Made by a program: the position numbers and the translations under genes. The notes beneath the pieces are model-generated. The model was not told where the DNA came from. It worked only from the letters and a program-made list of their open reading frames with translations, and made no database searches. Source: Methanocaldococcus jannaschii DSM 2661 (GTDB lineage Archaea; AGJL01; Methanococci; Methanococcales; Methanocaldococcaceae). Taken from it: a DNA stretch of 32,000 nt. This document shows, piece by piece, positions 3,230 through 24,981 of this stretch. The stretch is taken from positions 503,581-535,580 of the forward strand of contig NC_000909.1 of assembly GCF_000091665.1 (NCBI RefSeq). The letters run 5' to 3'. Positions within the stretch are counted from its first letter, which is position 1, and the number at the start of each line of letters is the position of its first letter.

Positions 3230-3683
3230 AATATAGAGTAAAGTATATATTTTTTGTTACCATAATTTTATTATAGATATAGGTTTGGAATTTCTGATTT
3301 TGTTGTTTGGTTTATTGATTGTCTTGTTGGATAAGTTTAGAATTTGAAAATAAGAGCATTTAGAAGTTATTAATTAGTTCAAAGGATTTTTATTTAATTT
3401 CTAAGGGTTTGCTGGTTTGATTATTTAGAATATTTAAGTTTATTGAATTATTCAGATTTTTGAAAATAAAAATTAAATAATTATCTAAATAAGATTTCTC
3501 TAACAGACAAGTTAAATTTTTGAATTTAAAAAGATAAAAATGCTTAGTTTTAGTAAAGAGATAAAATTTTAAATACTAAAAGGTTTATATTGTAAGATGG
3601 TTATTTACCCTTAGAAAAATATGGTATAGAAAAGCTTAAATATTAAGAGTGATGAAGTATATTATGTTGTGAATGATTGCCCT
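3230..3683 (+). promoter_or_regulatory. CRISPR leader (long AT-rich non-coding region upstream of the first repeat)
   Basis: About 450 bp with no credible ORF, directly abutting repeat 1. Degenerate repeats sit at the opposite end of the array, so this is the leader side. TATA-like tttatatt lies at 3584-3591 and ttaaatatta at 3636-3645. Confidence 0.65.
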
Positions 3684-4536
3684 GTTAAAATCAGACCGTT
3701 TCGGAATGGAAACTCTGATTTTAACTACCGAAATTTTTATATATGGATTTATATATAAATTGTTAAAATCAGACCGTTTCGGAATGGAAACTTTTATCCC
3801 TCCAAAAAATAAAAGAATAAATAAAAGTTAAAATCAGACCGTTTCGGAATGGAAACAGTGTAAATGAAGATTTCTTAACTATATTGCAACAAGCGTTAAA
3901 ATCAGACCGTTTCGGAATGGAAACAATTCTCTACAGAAACTAAATACAAATGACTTGTTAAAATCAGACCGTTTCGGAATGGAAACCAAAACATGAGTGC
4001 AGAAGAGGCAAATAACATTCTACAAGTTAAAATCAGACCGTTTCGGAATGGAAACCCCCCGAAAAGGTTGGAAACTCAGCAAAACTAATCGTTAAAATCA
4101 GACCGTTTCGGAATGGAAATATGGAACAAGAATGAGAATCTCTGGAGTGGATGTTATTAAAGTGTTAAAATCAGACCGTTTCGGAATGGAAACCTTATTG
4201 CCTCTTCAAATCTATAAACTATAGCATCAACACCGGTTAAAATCAGACCGTTTCGGAATGGAAACTTTTTATTTTAATAATGTTTCTATCATCTTAATTT
4301 TGAGTTAAAATCAGACCGTTTCGGAATGGAAACTTTTTATTTTAATAATGTTTCTATCATCTTAATTTTGAGTTAAAATCAGACCGTTTCGGAATGGAAA
4401 CAACTAAATCTAATTGAGATTTTTTTGGTTCATGTCTATTAAAATCAGACTGATTCGGAATGGAAACATAGTTCTTTTTCCTTCTACCTCCCAAAATTGT
4501 TTATAATTAAAATCAGACCTCTAAGAGGATGAAAAC
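3684..4536 (+). CRISPR. CRISPR array with 13 repeats and 12 spacers; consensus repeat gttaaaatcagaccgtttcggaatggaaac (30 nt)
   Basis: Repeats start at 3684, 3762, 3827, 3895, 3957, 4026, 4091 (ends ...aaat), 4164, 4236, 4304, 4372, 4438 (attaaaatcagactgattcggaatggaaac) and 4506 (attaaaatcagacctctaagaggatgaaaac, 31 nt). Spacer lengths are 48, 35, 38, 32, 39, 35, 43, 42, 38, 38, 36 and 38 nt. Orientation is inferred from the leader position and from the degenerate distal repeats. Confidence 0.97.
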
Positions 4537-6539: not shown

Positions 6540-6574
6540 ATAAACTTCTTTATTTTATTTTAAAATTTATCGAT

Positions 6575-6634
6575 ATATTTAAATCTTTTTTAAAAATATT
6601 AAAATGTATTAATTAATCGAAAGGTATAAATATT
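6575..6634 (+). promoter_or_regulatory. Conserved 60-bp promoter-proximal element, copy A (ends in TATA-like tataaatatt)
   Basis: Sequence atatttaaatcttttttaaaaatattaaaatgtattaattaatcgaaaggtataaatatt. It matches copy B at 54/60 positions and copy C at 53/60, with no gaps. It ends 46 nt before the ATG at 6681. Confidence 0.6.
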
Positions 6635-6680
6635 ACCTAATATATTTTTACTCATAAGCGGAAAATAATGAGGTGGGGAT

Positions 6681-7250
6681 ATGAATCCAGAGATGATTAT
6701 GGAGATGATGAATTCAGACATTGCTAAAGAAATGGCTCCTAAAATGATGCCAAAGATGATGCCTTTAGCTTTAGAGAAGTTTTTGCAATATATTCCTGAA
6801 AATGAAAGAAAGGAGTTTATAGCAAGAATTGTTGATATAATTGTAAGCAAGGATGAGAATAAAGAAGTTTCTGCTGAATATTTGGATATGTTTGAAGCCC
6901 TACTAAATGTTAAAGGTTTAAAAATCCATTCAAGAGGAGGAAAAGGGGCAATAAAGGAAAAAATATCCCCAATGGATTTGTTTTTAGCTGGGCTTTGTGG
7001 ATGTGTTTGCATAGCTGTTGGTAATACATTAAAAGCTAACAACATAGATGCTGAGATAAAAGTAGATGGAAAGGTTGAGAAATCCTTTGAAGAAGGAAAG
7101 ATAAAGAAGGTAATTATAAACATCTATGTAAAAGTTGATGGAGACATAGACAAAGAGAAATTAAAGAAATTAGTTTTAGAAGGCTCAAAAAAATGTTTAA
7201 TAAGCAACTCTATAAGCTGTGAGATTGAGAAGAATGTCATCCTTGAATAG
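6681..7250 (+). CDS. OsmC/Ohr-family (peroxiredoxin-like) protein with a Met-rich N-terminal extension
   Basis: The C-terminal half resembles OsmC domains, with two Cys regions (LAGLCGCVCIAVG... and KKCLISNSISCEIE). An SD gaggtgggg lies upstream. Confidence 0.65.
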   Translation: MNPEMIMEMMNSDIAKEMAPKMMPKMMPLALEKFLQYIPENERKEFIARIVDIIVSKDENKEVSAEYLDMFEALLNVKGLKIHSRGGKGAIKEKISPMDLFLAGLCGCVCIAVGNTLKANNIDAEIKVDGKVEKSFEEGKIKKVIINIYVKVDGDIDKEKLKKLVLEGSKKCLISNSISCEIEKNVILE

Positions 7251-7565: not shown

Positions 7566-8229
7566 TGGAGCTTATGGATACAGGATTAAAGGAACAATAA
7601 ACTCCTTTGGAAAGAAAAATAAATTCATTGGAATCTATAAAATCAACAAACCAGATGATTTGATAGTTGATGATATAGAGTTTCCAGATGAGTTGTTGGA
7701 AAAAATTAAAGAGGCTGATATTTTATTGCTTTATACTCAACATCCAGACAACACCTATTATCTCTGCTATGAGGCAAGGAGATTGAATAAAGATATTGCC
7801 ATAATCGTTGCTACGTGGAGTGGAGAGGGAGAGAAGAAGGAGCTAAAGAAGTTTGATGCTATATGTCCAGAAGAGATGTGTTTGTTGGATGAAAATGAGG
7901 TTGGAAGCTTGATAGATAAATATCCAAAATTAAAAGAATTTTTAGAAGAATTTGGAACTCCAAAGGTTAAGGTTTATGTTAAAGACAACAAAGTTATAGA
8001 TGTGGAGGTTTTAAGAACATCTATCTGCGGTTCAACCTTATTTATGGCTAAGCTGATGAAGGGAATGGAGGTTAATGATATTGAAGAATTTGCCAAAAAA
8101 TCTGCCATGCTAATTCAAAGATATCCATGCGTTGCTGGGAAGATAAAAATTTTTAGAGGAGATTGTAGAAAGCAAAAAGCATTAAACATACACAAAGAGG
8201 CTGTTTTAGAAGGGATAATTTTCATTTAA
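7540..8229 (+). CDS. Conserved archaeal hypothetical protein (possibly the DUF166/COG1810 family)
   Basis: An SD aaaggag lies upstream and the gene overlaps its upstream neighbour by 26 nt (operon). The family assignment is from memory only. Confidence 0.5.
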
Positions 8230-8289
8230 ATATTTAAATCTTTTTTAAAAACATTAAAATACATCAATTAATCGAAAACTATAAATATT
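8230..8289 (+). promoter_or_regulatory. Conserved 60-bp promoter-proximal element, copy B
   Basis: Sequence atatttaaatcttttttaaaaacattaaaatacatcaattaatcgaaaactataaatatt. It starts immediately after the stop codon at 8227-8229 and ends 51 nt before the ATG at 8341. Confidence 0.6.
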
Positions 8290-8340
8290 TGTTGTGTATT
8301 TTATTTTACCCATAAGTGGATATTTTAAAAGAGGGAGAGC

Positions 8341-9384: not shown

Positions 9385-9400
9385 TAAAAGGGTGAGTGTT

Positions 9401-9880
9401 ATGTATAAAAAGATTCTTTATCCAACTGACTTCTCTGAAACTGCTGAGATTGCATTAAAGCATGTTAAGGCGTTTAAAACTCTTAAGGCGGAAGAAGTTA
9501 TTTTACTGCATGTTATAGATGAAAGAGAAATCAAAAAGAGAGATATATTCTCTCTACTCTTAGGTGTTGCAGGTTTGAATAAATCAGTTGAGGAGTTTGA
9601 AAATGAGCTAAAGAATAAACTTACTGAAGAAGCTAAAAATAAAATGGAAAATATCAAAAAAGAACTTGAAGATGTTGGATTTAAAGTTAAGGATATTATT
9701 GTTGTAGGAATTCCTCATGAAGAAATTGTTAAAATAGCTGAAGATGAGGGAGTAGATATAATTATAATGGGTTCTCATGGAAAAACAAACTTAAAAGAGA
9801 TATTACTTGGTTCAGTTACTGAAAATGTCATTAAAAAATCAAACAAACCAGTTTTAGTTGTTAAAAGAAAAAATAGCTAA
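9401..9880 (+). CDS. Universal stress protein (UspA family, ATP-binding type)
   Basis: YKKILYPTDFSE... and the C-terminal GSHGKTNLKEILLGSVTENVIKKSNKPVLVV (the G-2x-G-9x-G(S/T) ATP motif). The track ORF starts at GTG 9392, which lies inside the SD gggtga (9389-9395). ATG 9401 is the better-spaced start. Confidence 0.93.
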   Translation: MYKKILYPTDFSETAEIALKHVKAFKTLKAEEVILLHVIDEREIKKRDIFSLLLGVAGLNKSVEEFENELKNKLTEEAKNKMENIKKELEDVGFKVKDIIVVGIPHEEIVKIAEDEGVDIIIMGSHGKTNLKEILLGSVTENVIKKSNKPVLVVKRKNS

Positions 9881-10686
9881 ATAAATTCTTTTAATTTTTC
9901 ATAAAGCTCTTTTATTGATTCTGATACTTTGCTATTACTATCACAAAGCAAAATCTTATTTGCAATCAATTTTGGAACATCAAAATCAAAAGGAATTGAA
10001 TGGAATATTTTGAATGGGTAGTTAATGTTATTCATGCCCTTTTTATTCTCAACAATTAAATATTCAACATTAAAGAAATTTAGTGTTTCTATTAATCTTA
10101 AACAATCATTAACACTTGATTTTGTTGGCTCAACTATACATAAAGCTAAATCAACATCTTTAACCGTTGAGATTAATGGACATCCAACTCCTGGAGGGCC
10201 ATCTATAATCCCCAACTCTGCTTTATATTTTTTGGCATGGTTTTTTATATGCTCAATAATCTTTCCACTTCCACTCTCACCAACCTCTAACTCTCCCCAA
10301 ATTAACGGAAAGCCAACAAAACCTTCGTAGATATAACCACTTTCACGTTTAATTGGCTCTATTGCATCAAATTCACAGATTAGCTCACAAGCTCCACAAC
10401 CTTCACACAGTATTGGATTTATCTTAAAATCCCCTATAGCGTCAAATTGACAGACATCTAAGCATTTTCCACATCTTATGCAGTCATCATTTATCTCATA
10501 TATCTCACGATAGATAACTTCCAACAATTTTTTATCTTTAACATCAAACATTAAGTTAAAGTTTGGTGCATCAACATCACAATCTAATGCTACAATATTA
10601 AACTCTTTTGAAAACAGCTTAGCTAAGGATGTTGAAATAGAAGATTTTCCTACTCCTCCTTTCCCTGAGATAATTGCTATCTTCAT
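9877..10686 (-). CDS. MinD/Mrp-superfamily P-loop ATPase with an inserted 2x[4Fe-4S] ferredoxin domain
   Basis: Deviant Walker A SGKGGVGKSS, plus two CxxCxxCxxxC motifs (CIRCGKCLDVC and CEGCGACELIC). The start is moved to MKIAIISGKGG (ATG 10686), 2 nt after the upstream stop. The track start is 10707. Confidence 0.85.
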   Translation of the reverse strand: MKIAIISGKGGVGKSSISTSLAKLFSKEFNIVALDCDVDAPNFNLMFDVKDKKLLEVIYREIYEINDDCIRCGKCLDVCQFDAIGDFKINPILCEGCGACELICEFDAIEPIKRESGYIYEGFVGFPLIWGELEVGESGSGKIIEHIKNHAKKYKAELGIIDGPPGVGCPLISTVKDVDLALCIVEPTKSSVNDCLRLIETLNFFNVEYLIVENKKGMNNINYPFKIFHSIPFDFDVPKLIANKILLCDSNSKVSESIKELYEKLKEFI

Positions 10687-10688
10687 TA

Positions 10689-11489
10689 TTATCCCCAAAT
10701 AATCCAATTTGCAATCTCTTCTATATAATTTCTCAAATCATTATATTTTAAAAAACTCTCTCCTTTGCAGTAGCATTCAACTATTCTCTTATCATAAGGA
10801 ATTTTGAAGTTATAACCAATTTTTAAATCACTGATTCCATATCTATTCAAAACAATCTTGTATGGAATATTTAGCTTTTCCACAACCTTGATTATCCTCT
10901 TTGCATCTGAAACACCAAAAGGTGTTGGCTCTGTAACTATAAGGACTTTATCTGCGTTAATTAATGCTCTCACAACGTTACAGTGAGTTCCTGCGGCAGT
11001 ATCTACAATGTTAATTTCGCAGTTTTTTGATAAACCATATTTCTTTGTTTCAGTTACGATTTTTGCTGTCTTTCTCTCTCCCAAGTTTGATTTTCCTACA
11101 ATTAGATATCCATTATCAAATTTTTTCTCGTAAATCTTTCCAATGCTCTTCTTTTTAAATGTTATATTGCTATTTATTCCACAAGCTTTACAGCCACTGC
11201 ATAAATCCTCAATAAATATTAATTTATCTCCAACTTTTAATAAAGCTCCTTCTTTACATACATTATTATAGTTGTAAGTTTTACCCTCCTCTATATTTGG
11301 AACTTCAATAAAAACTTCTCTTGCTAAGAATAAATCCTCACAACCTGTTAAGTAGGGAAGATTTGGCGTCTCAACATCACAATCTATTAAAGCAGTTTTA
11401 TAATTCTCAATAAAATAAAAAAAGAGGTTTGCTGACAAGGTAGATTTTCCAGTCCCTCCTTTACCACCAGTTACTGCAACAATCATCAT
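10689..11489 (-). CDS. MinD/Mrp-superfamily P-loop ATPase paralogue with a degenerate Cys insert
   Basis: Walker A TGGKGGTGKST and only one CxxCxxC motif (CSGCKAC). The track start at 11498 is TTG. ATG 11489 or 11486 (MMIVAVTGG) is more likely. Confidence 0.85.
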   Translation of the reverse strand: MMIVAVTGGKGGTGKSTLSANLFFYFIENYKTALIDCDVETPNLPYLTGCEDLFLAREVFIEVPNIEEGKTYNYNNVCKEGALLKVGDKLIFIEDLCSGCKACGINSNITFKKKSIGKIYEKKFDNGYLIVGKSNLGERKTAKIVTETKKYGLSKNCEINIVDTAAGTHCNVVRALINADKVLIVTEPTPFGVSDAKRIIKVVEKLNIPYKIVLNRYGISDLKIGYNFKIPYDKRIVECYCKGESFLKYNDLRNYIEEIANWIIWG

Positions 11490-11490
11490 C

Positions 11491-11820
11491 TCACTCAAAT
11501 TTTTCTAATTTTCCTTCTAAAAATAGCTTTATGCATTCATCAATAGATGTTGTATTAGCTTTATAAACATCAATGCCAAGCTGTTTAAAAACACTGTATG
11601 CCTTAGGTCCTATATTTTGGACTATTATGGCATTTACACCCATATTTGCAATTAATGAGGCTGATGTAGTTCCAACTCCATGCATGCCATTTCTTGCAGT
11701 GTTTTCAATGATCTCTTTATTTTTTATCTCTCCATTTTCAATCTCTACAATCATGAATTTTTCACACCTTCCAAAGTGTGGAGATAGCCGATTGTTATCT
11801 ATAGGTAGAGCTATTTTCAT
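11491..11820 (-). CDS. NifX/NifB-C-terminal-like (dinitrogenase FeMo-cofactor-binding fold) small protein
   Basis: MKIALPIDNNRLSPHFGRCEKFMIVEI... is typical of the NifX/NifY/NafY-type domain. An SD GGTGA (complement of 11826-11830) lies 5 nt before ATG 11820. The track start is 11847. Confidence 0.8.
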   Translation of the reverse strand: MKIALPIDNNRLSPHFGRCEKFMIVEIENGEIKNKEIIENTARNGMHGVGTTSASLIANMGVNAIIVQNIGPKAYSVFKQLGIDVYKANTTSIDECIKLFLEGKLEKFE

Positions 11821-11907
11821 TAATTTCACCTTTAAAATTTTCGTCATTCTTCAATATTACAACGCTTATGCGAGAAAATATATAAAATTTACTGAAATAT
11901 TATCCAA

Positions 11908-11967
11908 ATATTTGAATTCTTTTTAAAAATATTAAAATATATCAATTAATCGAAAACTATAAATATT
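11908..11967 (+). promoter_or_regulatory. Conserved 60-bp promoter-proximal element, copy C
   Basis: Sequence atatttgaattctttttaaaaatattaaaatatatcaattaatcgaaaactataaatatt. It matches copy B at 55/60 positions and ends 143 nt before ATG 12111. Confidence 0.6.
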
Positions 11968-11988
11968 ACTTTTAAAACCCAATAATAT

Positions 11989-12098
11989 TTAGTGTCTTTC
12001 AAAACATTTTGTAATACCTTAAGGTATTAATGAACGCCTTCCTTTAGGAAGGTGTTCAAATTTTCCTTAATAAATTTATTAATTTTGAAAGACACTAA
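11989..12098. repeat. 110-bp element bounded by perfect 16-bp terminal inverted repeats and containing three internal hairpins (MITE-like insertion or structured 5' leader)
   Basis: ttagtgtctttcaaaa (11989-12004) is the exact reverse complement of ttttgaaagacactaa (12083-12098). Internal hairpins: 12012-12018/12023-12029; 12031-12042/12047-12058 (12 bp including one G-U pair, loop ttta); and the palindrome ttaataaatttattaa at 12067-12082. Confidence 0.6.
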
Positions 12099-12110
12099 TT
12101 GGTGAGGGTT

Positions 12111-12359
12111 ATGGTAGTGATAAGGATATTCGGAACGGGCTGTCCAAAATGTAACCAAACATACGAGAACGTTAAAAAAGCAGTAGAAGAACTTGGCATA
12201 GATGCAGAGATTGTTAAAGTTACAGATGTCAATGAGATAGCTGAATGGGTTTTTGTTACACCTGGAGTAGCATTTGACGATGTAATTGTCTTTGAAGGAA
12301 AAATTCCCTCTGTTGAGGAAATTAAGGAAGAGTTAAAAAGTTACTTAGAGGGGAAATAA
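12111..12359 (+). CDS. Thioredoxin-fold 'redox-active disulfide protein 2'-type small protein (CPKC active site)
   Basis: MVVIRIFGTGCPKCNQTYENVKKA... is the typical N-terminus of this family. An SD ggtgagg lies at 12101-12107. The track start at 12099 is TTG. Confidence 0.8.
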   Translation: MVVIRIFGTGCPKCNQTYENVKKAVEELGIDAEIVKVTDVNEIAEWVFVTPGVAFDDVIVFEGKIPSVEEIKEELKSYLEGK

Positions 12360-12745
12360 TGAAAGTGGCAATTATCGCATGTCAAAAAATGGTTGAAATG
12401 GGATGTCCTGGGAAAGAGGCATGCGTATCTTGCTTTAAAGCAATAAATGAGAAGAGTGGAGCTTTTGAAAGATACAAAGATGTTGAGTTAGTTGCATTTA
12501 CAACCTGTGGGGGTTGTCCTGGAAGGAGATTTCCAATGAGAGTAAAGCTATTAAAAACTGCTGCTGGAGCTGAAGCTATTCATATAGCAAACTGCACCTT
12601 CTTACAGCCAGAATGCCCATACATAAACTTTGATGAAATCTGTAAGAAGTTGATGGAAGAGTTGGAGATTCCAATTGTATTTGGAACTCATACATTGGTT
12701 AAGAAAGGAGAAGTTGTTTGCACCTGTGGAGACAATAAGGAATAA
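12359..12745 (+). CDS. CGGC-domain protein
   Basis: Contains the TTCGGCPGRR motif and several additional Cys residues. Its ATG overlaps the upstream stop (ATAATG junction), which suggests translational coupling. Confidence 0.75.
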   Translation: MKVAIIACQKMVEMGCPGKEACVSCFKAINEKSGAFERYKDVELVAFTTCGGCPGRRFPMRVKLLKTAAGAEAIHIANCTFLQPECPYINFDEICKKLMEELEIPIVFGTHTLVKKGEVVCTCGDNKE

Positions 12746-12811: not shown

Positions 12812-12985
12812 ATGATTGTTTGGAACTTAATCTGTCCAAAGTGTGGAAAGAGGTTGAGATATAAGGTAGATGTTTGCCCGTGCATGGCTTCTGAGGTAGA
12901 GCTTCCAAACTGCCCAGATTGTGGAGAAAAGATGGTTCATGATTATACTTCATTAAAAGGAAGAAGGAGAATTAGGAGGGGATGA
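12812..12985 (+). CDS. 57-aa zinc-ribbon protein with a basic tail (not in the ORF track)
   Basis: Sequence MIVWNLICPKCGKRLRYKVDVCPCMASEVELPNCPDCGEKMVHDYTSLKGRRRIRRG*. An SD gtggtga lies at 12801-12807. The stop TGA overlaps the permease ATG (ATGA at 12982-12985). Cys pairs are CPKC, CPC and CPDC. Confidence 0.6.
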   Translation: MIVWNLICPKCGKRLRYKVDVCPCMASEVELPNCPDCGEKMVHDYTSLKGRRRIRRG

Positions 12986-14079
12986 AAATGGATGTTATGA
13001 GCTTTATAATGAACATTATTAATGTTATGATAAACACAATCATCGATTATTTAAATGTAAATAGAGTCTTAGCCTTATTGATGGCTTTCTTAATGGCTGG
13101 AGGCATTGCTTCAATGATTAACAAGAACTTTATTATAAAATATTTCGGTTCAAACACACCAAAATACATATCCTATACTGTAGCTGCTGTTAGTGGTAGC
13201 TTATTAGCTGTCTGTTCTTGCACTATCCTTCCATTATTTGCCAGTATTTACAAAAGAGGAGCTGGAATAGGGCCAGCAACAACATTCTTGTTCTCTGGGC
13301 CAGCAATAAATGTTTTGGCTATATTTTACTCAGCGGCATTGCTTGGATGGGACATTGGATTTTTAAGGGCTGTGTTTGCAGTAGTAGTCTCAATACTTAT
13401 TGGTTTATCAATGGAGATAATATTTAAAAGCCATGAGAAAAAGAGAGCTTTAAGAGTCCCAAAGGCAGATAAAATATCAGATAGGCCTCTATATCAAACA
13501 ATAACATTCTTTGCTCTGCAGTTTATCATGTTGTTGGTAATTACCGCCTCACCCAAGCTGTTTCCAACGTTATCAATGCCTCTATACGATGGATTTTTAT
13601 TAAAGCATCTGCTATTTATAATACTTGGGATTATCTTGGCTGTAACAACAAAAATCTGGTTTAAAGATGAGGAGATTAAGAACTGGCTCAGAGAGAGCTT
13701 TACACTGCTAAAGATTGTCTTTCCACTGCTAATTATTGGAGTTGCCATAGCTGGAGCTATTAAGGCAATTATCCCACCAAGTTATATAGCAACCTATGTA
13801 GGAGGAAACTCCATAACTGCCAACTTTATTGCCTCATTTATTGGAGCTTTGATGTATTTCGCCACATTAACAGAAGTGCCAATTATAAAGGCATTGATGG
13901 AGCTTGGTATGGGTGTAGGGCCGGCAATGGCTCTGCTGTTAGCTGGACCAAGTTTGAGTATTCCAACAGTCTTAACCATCTCAAAAGTCTTAGGAAAGAC
14001 GAAGGCTTTAACATATTTGGGTTTAGTTGTTATATTCTCAACAATATGTGGCTATATAGCTGGAATAATCCTCAGATAA
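12982..14079 (+). CDS. COG0701/DUF318-type permease (ArsP-like family)
   Basis: Polytopic membrane protein with a vicinal-Cys motif AVCSCTILP in an early TM segment, as I recall for ArsP-type permeases. Its genomic context (thioredoxin-like and CGGC genes) is typical for this family. Confidence 0.8.
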   Translation: MKMDVMSFIMNIINVMINTIIDYLNVNRVLALLMAFLMAGGIASMINKNFIIKYFGSNTPKYISYTVAAVSGSLLAVCSCTILPLFASIYKRGAGIGPATTFLFSGPAINVLAIFYSAALLGWDIGFLRAVFAVVVSILIGLSMEIIFKSHEKKRALRVPKADKISDRPLYQTITFFALQFIMLLVITASPKLFPTLSMPLYDGFLLKHLLFIILGIILAVTTKIWFKDEEIKNWLRESFTLLKIVFPLLIIGVAIAGAIKAIIPPSYIATYVGGNSITANFIASFIGALMYFATLTEVPIIKALMELGMGVGPAMALLLAGPSLSIPTVLTISKVLGKTKALTYLGLVVIFSTICGYIAGIILR

Positions 14080-14891: not shown

Positions 14892-14981
14892 ATTTTCACC
14901 AGTTAGTTATTTATACCCAACAATATAAACTAATGTTATCCAAAGTATATAAATGTTATTAAATTTTTGAGGGATAGTATT

Positions 14982-15479
14982 ATGCAAATGTGTGAGTTAT
15001 GCGGAAAGCTTACAGATAAGCTTTACAAGGTAATTATTGAAGGCTCTGAAATGAATGTCTGTAAAGAGTGTGCTAAATTTGGCAAAAGTCCAAAAACATA
15101 TTCAAGATTAGGTAAAAAAACTATAATAGGAAAAGGAACAATAACTACTAATAAACAAGTTAAAAAGCCTATTAAAAGAAGAAGAGATATATTTGATACT
15201 TTACCAATGTTAAGAGAGGATTATGGGGATGTTATTAGAGAAGCAAGAGAAAAGAGAGGTTTATCAATAGAAGAACTTGCTAAAAAACTTAAAATGAAAG
15301 CAAGTACTTTACAAAAATTTGAAAGGTATGAGTTAGAACCAAATGAAAAAGAAATTAAAATATTAGAGAAAGAGTTAAAAATAAGCTTAACTGAAAGTAT
15401 TGGGGAAGAAACTTCATATTATGGTGGTAGAGATGAAGATGGATTTACATTAGGTGATTTCATTAAAATTAAGAAATAA
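14982..15479 (+). CDS. mbf1: Archaeal MBF1 (multiprotein-bridging factor 1): N-terminal zinc ribbon plus C-terminal XRE-type HTH
   Basis: CELCG...CKECAKFG zinc ribbon, and an HTH segment [36 protein letters not shown]. The track start at 14967 is TTG. ATG 14982 follows the TATA-like agtatataaatg at 14944-14955. Confidence 0.85.
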
Positions 15480-15491
15480 TGAGGTAATAAT

Positions 15492-15614
15492 ATGGAAGGA
15501 GAAAGCTTATTTTTATTAGTTTCAATACTTTCTTTTGCAGTTATCATAAGTTTTGTAGTAGGATTATATATCTGGTATTTTAAATTAGGTGGTAGAAAGA
15601 TGATAGAGGATTAA
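15492..15614 (+). CDS. 40-aa single-TM mini-protein (not in the ORF track)
   Basis: Sequence MEGESLFLLVSILSFAVIISFVVGLYIWYFKLGGRKMIED*. An SD gaggt lies at 15481-15485, 12 nt after the MBF1 stop. Confidence 0.4.
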   Translation: MEGESLFLLVSILSFAVIISFVVGLYIWYFKLGGRKMIED

Positions 15615-16533: not shown

Positions 16534-17826
16534 TTAATCCTTCTTTTCTATAAACTCCCTCAAAACAGAGGTTGCATAATTTCCTTTTTTTAAACAAAAC
16601 TGCAAAACATAGCTGTCATCTTCAATCCAATATTTCATATTGTATATTTTTCCAATCATCGCCCTTCTATCTCCAATAAATGAACCAAACTCACCAATCT
16701 TGAAATCCTCTGGACTTAGATTTTCTCTCTCATAAATCTCTCTCTCAATCTCTCCTTGTATTCCAGATGCAAACCTTGTTTTATATCCAAACAATGCCCC
16801 ACTCGGCACATTATCAATTAAAATATCCCCTTCCATAGGTTCAAAGCCATACTCAAACCTTCTATTGATTATCTCATTGAATAAATAGGATTGATAAGCA
16901 TTTATAAACATGCACCTTAAGTATGGTGGAAGAATCATAAATGCCTTTTGATAGCTCCCAGTTTCTATATAAGCTTTAATCATCCTTCTTTCATAAAAGA
17001 AAGCCTTTGGGAATTTTTTATACGCCTCTTTAAAATTCTCTTCATCCACCAACTCCCTTGCCAACTTTGATTTTTTGTCATCGTAAGGAAGGGGAGTTCC
17101 ACAATATGCATGGAAAGCTCCCTCCCAGTCTCTCTCTATAATAAACCTCCCAACTATGTGAGTTATTGGCCTTGTAGTTCCAAACCTTTGAACACCATAG
17201 TAATTTAAGAAGTATTTTAGCTTACATAACTTATTTAAAGCTTCTTCCAATTCTTTTCCTTTAAGCTCAGGCTCTCTAACTCTTATAGTAAATCTATTCC
17301 CCCACAAATCCCCCAACCTTATTTTTCTATTTGTTTTTTGGAAATCTCTCAATATTATGCCTTTAATCTTAACTTTCATTAAATCTTCTAACTTTACATT
17401 AAAACAGCCCACTCTTTGAGTAGTTACGGCATATTTATCCTTATTGCCAGCAAATCCAAAATGCTTTCTCTGCTTTCCTACTCTGTTTGCTATTTCTCTA
17501 ATGGCATCTAAAGTTGTCCAATTCCTCTTCTCTAATGTGAAGTGTATATAATTTCCCTTCCAATTTTCTTCATCTTTAAATTCTATACTCTTTCCAACTT
17601 CTAAAATAATTCCTTCTGGAGTTATCTCTTCAACAATAAAATCCTCTGGATATTTTTTAATAATTCCTCCTGTATAAGCATCAGTTAAGTATTTATTCAT
17701 GTTTAATGGCATTTCTTTTAGCTTTTCTTTAATTCTGCTGTCTCTTAATTTTTTTCTATATCTTTTTAATTTTTCTTTCAAATTTTTTTCACTTTCTTCC
17801 TTTCTCTGCTGAATCAAAAAATACAT
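16534..17826 (-). CDS. truD: tRNA pseudouridine synthase TruD/Pus7 family
   Basis: FGFAGNKDKYAVTTQ (catalytic Asp motif), GNRFTIRVRE, and YGVQRFG. A strong SD AGGTGA lies 4 nt upstream of ATG 17826. Confidence 0.9.
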   Translation of the reverse strand: MYFLIQQRKEESEKNLKEKLKRYRKKLRDSRIKEKLKEMPLNMNKYLTDAYTGGIIKKYPEDFIVEEITPEGIILEVGKSIEFKDEENWKGNYIHFTLEKRNWTTLDAIREIANRVGKQRKHFGFAGNKDKYAVTTQRVGCFNVKLEDLMKVKIKGIILRDFQKTNRKIRLGDLWGNRFTIRVREPELKGKELEEALNKLCKLKYFLNYYGVQRFGTTRPITHIVGRFIIERDWEGAFHAYCGTPLPYDDKKSKLARELVDEENFKEAYKKFPKAFFYERRMIKAYIETGSYQKAFMILPPYLRCMFINAYQSYLFNEIINRRFEYGFEPMEGDILIDNVPSGALFGYKTRFASGIQGEIEREIYERENLSPEDFKIGEFGSFIGDRRAMIGKIYNMKYWIEDDSYVLQFCLKKGNYATSVLREFIEKKD

Positions 17827-17881
17827 ATAATCACCTACAATACTTTAATAGTAATTAGTTAAATCTTAATTTGGTGATAGT

Positions 17882-18190
17882 GTGAGACCTAAAGAGGTCT
17901 GGAGAGAGTTGTTAGAGATAGCAAAAAATTACTATGATGAGGATAAGATTTTTTACTCCAAAACAAAAAGAGGGGCTTATAGGATAAAAAGCTTTACCAA
18001 GGATAAAATAGTTATTGAAAAATTGAGAGGAAAGTTGGATGAGGTTTTAGGGAAAAAGAGGTTTGTTGAAAATTGGGATAAACTTGTTCATGGTGTTGAA
18101 TGGAATATACCACCAGCAATAAAATCTTTTCTAAAGTTACATCCAAAAATAGTGGAAAATGAAGATGGAAATCTTATTTATAAAGAATAA
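17882..18190 (+). CDS. Hypothetical protein (102 aa)
   Basis: GTG start preceded by the SD ggtga. The composition is coding-like, but no family was recognised. Confidence 0.55.
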   Translation: MRPKEVWRELLEIAKNYYDEDKIFYSKTKRGAYRIKSFTKDKIVIEKLRGKLDEVLGKKRFVENWDKLVHGVEWNIPPAIKSFLKLHPKIVENEDGNLIYKE

Positions 18191-24471: not shown

Positions 24472-24897
24472 GTGGAAGATAAAATTGAGTTTATGGCTAA
24501 GCATAAAAAATGGTTCGTAGTGAAAAAATTAAAAATAGATGAAAATACTGAAGATATTGAGATAGCGAGGTTATTGGCATCAATAGATGAGACAGTTTTA
24601 AATAAAATCCCTGAATATTTGCCATTTGATATGAATAAGTTGTATGAGATTGCAGATGGAATATATCAAAAGAAAAAAGGAAGGATTACAGAAGAAGAGA
24701 TTGCAGAAGTTTTAAAGAAATTAAAATCTCCAGCAACTACAAGAAAATTAAATGAGATTACTGAATCAAAGGAAGGTAAGGAGATATTAAAAGCTATTTT
24801 AAATAACATAATATTAGAGAGATTAGGAATTCAAACAAGAGTTTCTCCAAAAGTTATTGAGAAATATATTGAGAATAGTCAATCTTCAAATAGATAA
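24472..24897 (+). CDS. Hypothetical protein (141 aa, helical, K/E-rich)
   Basis: GTG start 4 nt after the SD ggtga (24463-24467). No family recognised. Confidence 0.55.
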   Translation: MEDKIEFMAKHKKWFVVKKLKIDENTEDIEIARLLASIDETVLNKIPEYLPFDMNKLYEIADGIYQKKKGRITEEEIAEVLKKLKSPATTRKLNEITESKEGKEILKAILNNIILERLGIQTRVSPKVIEKYIENSQSSNR

Positions 24898-24981
24898 TTA
24901 ATTTTCTATTATTTAAGCCAAAAGCTTATAAGTTCATTATTAAATAATGAAGTTTGAAGATTGACTATCGGGAGAGAGAAA

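Follow-up and report, generated by a model that had tools for sequence, protein, structure and literature searches.

A 110-bp palindromic insertion, very probably MITE-like, ahead of a thioredoxin-like operon in Methanocaldococcus jannaschii

Methanocaldococcus jannaschii reportedly carries 141 copies of palindromic repeats in three groups (MJRE1-3), which are mostly extragenic and amount to 14.3 kb in total. Palindromic repetitive elements of about 100 bp, some of them fused to coding regions, are credited to this species in Suyama, Lathe & Bork 2005 (FEBS Lett), going by the citations of that paper in PMC2229807 and PMC2996958. The other described systems closest to the locus treated here are the prokaryotic MITEs (Sulfolobus SM, Neisseria Correia/NEMIS, and pneumococcal RUP; PMC2229807), the REP/BIME sequences and Rickettsia palindromic elements (RPE), and, by position, riboswitches and RNA thermometers. 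We found nothing further in the literature on MJ0580-0582 or on MITEs in Methanocaldococcus.

The window analyzed here is a stretch of 32,000 nucleotides of M. jannaschii DSM 2661 (NC_000909.1, positions 503,581 to 535,580 of the forward strand; 31% G+C), and all coordinates refer to it unless a locus is named. It contains a palindromic element of 110 bp, here called E1, which lies just ahead of the first gene of an operon. We conclude that E1 is very probably a non-autonomous, non-coding, hairpin-forming mobile element of the MITE type and a member of a dispersed Methanocaldococcus family.

The palindrome and its surroundings

The whole insertion (11989-12098) is delimited by its perfect 16-nt termini, by the leader of an orthologous locus (L084), and by a family HMM that matches the window at 11990-12094 (E = 5.5e-21). 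An inverted-repeat search gives the left (11989-12004, plus strand, TTAGTGTCTTTCAAAA) and right (12083-12098, plus strand, TTTTGAAAGACACTAA) terminal repeats; the arms are 100% complementary over 16 nt and 78 nt apart, in agreement with the initial annotation, which had called them exact reverse complements. The three hairpins that it placed between the arms are also found at its coordinates. Hairpin 1 (12012-12029) is a perfect 18-nt palindrome, TAATACC-TTAA-GGTATTA. The central, G+C-rich hairpin (12031-12058), recognized from the fold and from the family alignment, has a 12-bp stem (12031-12042/12047-12058) and the loop TTTA. The AT palindrome TTAATAAATTTATTAA (12067-12082) is perfect and melts in the 65 C and 85 C folds. 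The sole imprecision concerned the central stem, where a G:T wobble at 12036:12053 makes it imperfect as a DNA palindrome.

Perfect 16-nt inverted pairs with a span of 40-200 nt occur twice in the window, at E1 and at 24875-24968, and in none of 100 dinucleotide shuffles of the window. The RNA minimum free energy of E1 is -44.7 kcal/mol versus -15.4 +/- 3.0 for shuffles (z = -9.65), and the minus strand folds at z = -9.68. There is no transposase, and only spurious short ORFs cross the 110 bp. A comparison of E1 with Rfam gave nothing at the gathering threshold, and the E-value search returned only chance miRNA-type matches (E >= 1). The HMM detects no second family copy within the 32-kb window. 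E1 is a real feature, and the observation of it was correct.

The operon begins with a gene for an MTH895/ArsE-family thioredoxin-like protein (12111-12359, plus strand; Pfam PF13192) with its ATG at 12111, followed by a CGGC gene (12359-12745; PF08821), a small ORF (12812-12985), and a gene for an ArsP permease (12982-14079; PF03773). The Shine-Dalgarno sequence (SD) of the first gene, GGTGA, was read at 12101-12105 on the plus strand, and E1 stops 2 nt short of it, as had been noted. Upstream of E1 is a promoter/operator block of about 75 nt (copy C, 11895-11969), which includes a BRE-like CGAAAAC and the TATA box TATAAATA (together 11951-11965, plus strand), both conserved in the three copies of the block and in orthologous leaders. 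The TATA box itself (11958-11965) is 24-31 nt upstream of the left end of E1.

The block follows the pattern TTTTTTAAAAATATTAAAAT.TATCAATTAATCGAAAA.TATAAATATTA and occurs twice more in the window, ahead of a 189-aa ORF at 6681-7250 (copy A, 6562-6636) and ahead of an operon for a SLAC1/TehA-like transporter and a Usp protein (copy B, 8217-8291). Both copies had been said to be free of the E1 block, and both are. The leaders of A and B share TTACYCATAAGYGGA, which C does not have. The three blocks suggest a small regulon under one putative regulator. The ORF at 9392-9880 gives a full-length match to PDB 1MJH (MJ0577).

A second palindromic insertion, E2 (24875-24968, 94 bp), belongs to another family. 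Its 16-nt termini, ATAGTCAATCTTCAAA, are perfect inverted repeats that enclose three hairpins, and it folds with a z-score of -6.6. The 95% orthologous locus (L105/L106) has no E2, and there the DUF2666 and radical-SAM genes overlap. In the window, E2 takes over the C-terminal end of the DUF2666 ORF (24472-24897; ...IENSQSSNR, stop), replacing its tail and contributing the last 7 codons and the stop codon. Between E1 and E2, no sequence relatedness is detectable beyond TAGT...TTCAAA at the termini. An element in a coding end fits the title of Suyama, Lathe & Bork 2005, the paper cited in PMC2229807 and PMC2996958.

Two other repeat features occur in the window. A CRISPR array (3684-4467) has 12 repeats (Rfam CRISPR-DR13), the last of them degenerate, and two of its consecutive units (4236-4303 and 4304-4371) are 100% identical, with one spacer duplicated. 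An imperfect 32-nt inverted repeat at 15357-15534 (72% complementary, arms 114 nt apart, each with AAGCTT at its inner end) reaches from the 3' end of an HTH gene (14967-15479) into the intergenic stretch behind it and is possibly the decayed form of a third palindromic element.

Orthologous leaders and the repeat family

We collected orthologous loci via the thioredoxin-like protein and then read their leaders. E1 is identical in three independent assemblies in which the thioredoxin-like protein is also identical. The leader of a 94% ortholog (L084) equals the window leader minus exactly 11989-12098, with the junction TATAAATATTACTTTTAAAACCTTATAGTAT/TTGGTGAGG (right side also written TTGGTGAGGAGTATG). 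It had been proposed that taking out E1 would give a normal leader spacing, and this leader has exactly that form. E1 is absent as well from loci with 88% (L006-8), 79% (L087-89), and 77% orthologs (L090-92, including M. vulcanius CP001787), in which the promoter/operator block runs straight to the SD; in L087-89 the upstream gene is the same as in the window. The block upstream of the thioredoxin-like gene is kept in all orthologous loci examined.

The closest ortholog (L004, 96%) has only the left ~30 nt of E1, TTTAGTTTTTGTAAAACATTTTGTA with a decayed arm, joined to TTTGGTGA, and its operon is intact. The remnant is apparently the product of an internal deletion between two TAAT motifs. Overall, six distinct orthologous leaders lack E1, and a seventh, L004, has it in truncated form. 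From this distribution we conclude that the M. jannaschii lineage acquired E1 and that a sister lineage later lost most of it while its operon stayed whole. The loss in L004 and the absence from all other relatives argue that E1 is dispensable.

L004 also differs from the window next to this site. Where the window has 9877-11847, L004 has only 3525-3845 and is without three divergently transcribed genes, two for MinD/CbiA-like Fe-S ATPases and one Nitro_FeMo-Co-like gene; of the FeMo-Co-like gene, the first ~40 codons are still present in decayed form. We read this loss as a lineage-specific deletion adjoining the truncated E1.

The reciprocal case was found by nhmmer with E1. A full-length family copy at L004:7924-8033, with 83% identity to E1 and its own perfect 16-nt arms, sits between TruD and a 102-aa ORF, and the window counterpart, a short intergenic stretch at 17826-17882 (..atcTTAAttt..), is empty. 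A paralogous pair of sites is filled in L028 and empty in L037.

A scan with the central-hairpin pattern over one genome per species returned 75 stretches, of which 24 are in two Methanocaldococcus MAGs and about 50 are unrelated bacterial hairpins. It returned no M. jannaschii locus, E1 included (the region is probably masked), and its counts are therefore those of other genomes. MAG JBDOKN01 has at least 15 family loci and MAG JAMOTQ01 at least 9. Terminus and HMM searches of these loci turned up more copies, some of them shorter or longer but with unchanged ends. The 24 aligned copies have a mean identity of 92% and perfect termini of 15-18 nt. Their 114-nt consensus opens with TTATAGTTCTTTTCAAAA, and its full form is TTATAGTTCTTTTCAAAATATTTTGGAATACATAAGGTATTAATGAACTCCTTCC(ATTA/TAAT)GGAAGGAGTTCAAACTTCCTTAATAAATTTTATTCACTTTTGAAAAGAACTATAA.

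The terminus of the E1 subfamily, TAGTGTCTTTCAAAA, is present in copies L061, L095, L097, and L098, which represent three other unrelated loci (L097 and L098 are one locus from two samples). The copy on metagenome contig L095 (1085-1191) is 6 nt downstream of a tRNA-Sec gene (989-1080). A metagenome scan for paired E1 termini gave seven matches, four of them unrelated G+C-rich palindromes and three real copies from two loci. The initial annotation had proposed a search for other copies of the E1 termini, and the same or closely related termini do occur at unrelated loci.

The ~30 copies all lie between genes or overlap no more than the end of one. About 13 of the 30 are at most 35 nt from a start codon and often, like E1, stop a few nucleotides short of the SD; for about 13, a stop codon is no more than 25 nt away. 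With respect to the downstream gene, orientations divide 7:5, without bias. This placement appears to be that of a mobile element in a compact genome and is unlike that of a strand-specific RNA motif.

At L061, in a genome of 31% G+C, G+C-rich self-complementary sequence is found on both sides of the E1-subfamily copy (2380-2460 and 2566-2660). These flanks read GGAGGTCGTGC...GCGCCCAGACCTCC and CCCCCCAACTTCGAACCC...GGGTCGGTTCGTTGGGGG and look like a structured RNA gene that adjoins, or is interrupted by, the copy. Rfam gave no gathering-threshold match to them and only a chance-level match at E <= 1. Two further family copies occur within 2.4 kb at this locus.

The family consensus folds as a long imperfect palindrome with a terminal stem, a weak middle stem, and a central hairpin, the last being the most conserved part. 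Replacement of GGTATTAATG by GGCACTGATG breaks hairpin 1 in many copies, the family retains the AT palindrome only in part, and neither hairpin 1 nor hairpin 3 is conserved. Three positions of the terminal arms vary between subfamilies, yet the arms are perfectly complementary inside each copy. In the central stem, position 5 is G:T in E1, A-T in L061 and L095, G-C in L097 and L098, and T-A in the main subfamily, and position 4 is C-G or T-A across copies. Of the central loops in the A4 alignment (loci L013-L082), 12 read ATTA and 11 read TAAT or CAAT; in both MAGs, ATTA and TAAT are about equally frequent. The orthologous copies L097:3571-3680 and L098:4879-4986 differ in the loop (AAA versus TTT) and by a stem change from C-G to T-A. 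The two loop states are mutually reverse-complementary and the asymmetric inner flanks hold one orientation, a behavior that appears flip/flop-like. Covariation in the central stem may be explained equally well by upkeep of the palindrome at the DNA level as by an RNA fold, with copies in both orientations. E1 itself is still perfectly paired and identical in three assemblies, and the central stem compensates across copies, so some structural constraint is possible.

In the main subfamily, TTA/TAG...CTA/TAA (T-TA-[TAG...CTA]-TA-A) is the reading of 15 of 22 copies. TTAA stands at the only clean empty site, and these flanks are compatible with a TA duplication at TTAA. Across the three filled/empty pairs the picture is mixed, since the best empty sites of E1 and E2 do not fit such a duplication. 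L084 lacks the whole 110 bp with no duplicated bases, and the empty site of E2 fits insertion without duplication and contains no TA.

No autonomous element with the family termini was found, and no terminus pair is more than 171 bp apart, in ~212 kb of Methanocaldococcus loci. The plasmid, phage, and viral collections contain no family relative; one viral contig matches the main-subfamily termini, but the family HMM does not match it, and we set it aside as chance.

Transcription, folding, and alternative readings

The TATA region of M. jannaschii promoters is centered about 30 nt upstream of the start site (PMC2699501). With the TATA box of promoter C where it is, this spacing predicts a start at about 11986-11992, at the left arm of E1, and transcripts from promoter C would plausibly open with E1 as their first ~110 nt. 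The four-way-junction-like leader proposed earlier corresponds to the 37 C minimum-energy fold of E1 (a single copy). In the predicted 85 C fold (-7.5 kcal/mol versus ~0 for shuffles), the AT palindrome is lost, but hairpin 1, the central hairpin, and 12 bp of the terminal stem persist. At 37, 65, and 85 C alike, the SD stays unpaired in the predicted folds of the leader. The imperfect pair of E1 is G:U on the mRNA strand and C:A on the opposite strand. Among 134 mapped M. jannaschii 5' UTRs, only one is stably folded at 85 C (PMC2699501); since stable structure is this rare, an effect of E1 on mRNA stability or translation is conceivable.

The comparison of leaders and the family searches show E1 as an insertion with exact boundaries whose family copies occupy many unrelated intergenic sites in both orientations. 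We favor the MITE-like reading because of these other copies, the presence/absence polymorphism with exact boundaries, and the lack of orientation bias, and to this extent the first of the two readings offered by the initial annotation is upheld. Its arrival, at or beside the transcription start of the thioredoxin-like/CGGC/ArsP operon, would postdate the split of the M. jannaschii lineage from close relatives. The mRNA leader would then contain a terminal stem and central hairpin that survive at 85 C, with the SD free. The effect would most likely be neutral, or a modest shift in mRNA stability or translation, and not ligand or temperature sensing. We infer that the arms co-evolve through the element's own mechanism, whether through a need for the two ends to be recognized or through template switching at the hairpin that copies one arm from the other; perfect arms upheld in this way would need no selection on the thioredoxin-like operon.

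A former mobile insertion may since have been exapted as a 5' leader that serves the operon, for example as a 5'-terminal stem-loop that shields the mRNA from a 5'-to-3' exonuclease or tunes translation at high temperature. The predicted start at the left arm (TATA 11958-11965; spacing from PMC2699501) would suit such a role, as would a fold that persists at 85 C in a species where 1 of 134 mapped 5' UTRs does so (PMC2699501), the sole imperfect pair being G:U on the mRNA strand and C:A on the other, and the ~13 of 30 family copies at most 35 nt from a start codon. We nevertheless judge it unlikely: six orthologous leaders have no E1 and the closest one has lost most of it, while the operon is intact, orientation is unbiased (7:5), hairpins 1 and 3 are unconserved in the family, the SD is never sequestered, and one G:T is a single event that proves nothing. 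Somewhat less probable again is an outward promoter carried by E1, with the AT palindrome acting as the TATA box, a start near 12100, and E1 outside the mRNA. The palindrome is ~30 nt upstream of the right end of E1, an archaeal TATA distance (geometry from PMC2699501), and many family copies end 4-35 nt before a start codon, but it fits poorly to the TTTATATA-type box of promoters A, B, and C and has no BRE-like purine run upstream, and promoter C is intact and conserved just upstream of E1.

Strong predicted structure and position in a leader are what speak for a riboswitch or RNA thermometer of a thiol/metalloid operon, or for an independent small RNA gene, all of which we consider very improbable. 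The riboswitch- or thermosensor-like leader was the second reading of the initial annotation, under which a regulatory structure was expected to be conserved in orthologous leaders. E1 is not conserved there, being absent from six of them; it has no Rfam match and no expression platform (the SD is unpaired and no terminator follows); and family members also stand beside unrelated genes, after stop codons, and after a tRNA gene. That reading is not sustained. A fortuitous one-off palindrome has the AT-rich genome in its favor and nothing else, and with no 16-nt pair in 100 shuffles and related copies elsewhere, its probability is close to nil.

Beyond the MITE-like reading of E1, we tentatively propose for the family as a whole, as a doubtful but interesting possibility, a hairpin-dependent mobile element that prefers TTAA-like sites at transcription-unit boundaries, often between promoter and SD, and whose copies act as portable heat-stable 5' stem-loops that change mRNA fate. 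The proposal draws on the compensatory changes in the G+C-rich central hairpin, the flip/flop loop, and the TTAA-like site preference. If true, Methanocaldococcus would have a mobilizing enzyme for it.

Comparison with known systems

The analysis offers a correction, in that a striking predicted leader structure is to be read as a mobile palindromic repeat and no riboswitch or thermosensor annotation is warranted. It also brings out a MITE-like family that has recently been active in genomes of uncultured Methanocaldococcus, where its copies are near-identical, and that is represented by older copies in M. jannaschii, and it supplies clean filled/empty site pairs. The full, truncated, and absent copies in close relatives form a natural experiment on what a heat-stable stem-loop of 110 nt does when an archaeal mRNA begins with it, and a genetic system for M. 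jannaschii exists (PMC6616113).

Like riboswitches and RNA thermometers, E1 is a highly structured segment between promoter and SD; unlike them, it is unconserved at the orthologous position, does not sequester the SD, has no Rfam match, and belongs to a family found beside unrelated genes. REP/BIME sequences and RPE resemble E1 as palindromic repeats at gene boundaries whose transcribed copies can form mRNA stem-loops, and RPE-like insertion into coding ends is seen for E2. REPs differ in being ~35 bp long and linked to RAYT transposases, and they have no sequence similarity to E1.

The likeness to prokaryotic MITEs (Sulfolobus SM, Neisseria Correia/NEMIS, pneumococcal RUP; PMC2229807) is broader. 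Both they and the E1 family are shorter than 200 bp, non-coding, and A+T-rich, with terminal inverted repeats, TA at the termini, dispersed intergenic copies, and insertion polymorphism, and co-transcription with neighboring genes and hairpin folding, described for MITEs, are predicted for E1. Unlike MITEs, the E1 family has no match to a parental IS or transposase (in ~212 kb) and no demonstrable target duplication, and its members are imperfect palindromes over their full length, in which a G+C-rich central hairpin is conserved and has two reverse-complementary loop states.

The MJRE1-3 repeats share with E1 and E2 the organism and the form, palindromic repeats of ~100 bp. With 141 copies, their density would be ~2.7 per 32 kb, and the window has two such elements, E1 and E2. 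Some MJRE copies are fused to coding regions; likewise, E2 rewrites the C-terminus of the ORF at 24472-24897. The E1 family differs in that its near-identical recent expansion is seen in other Methanocaldococcus genomes, and the window has one family copy. E1 probably belongs to the MJRE repeats, beside which we set it by description only, and it is in either case an ordinary element of a known kind.
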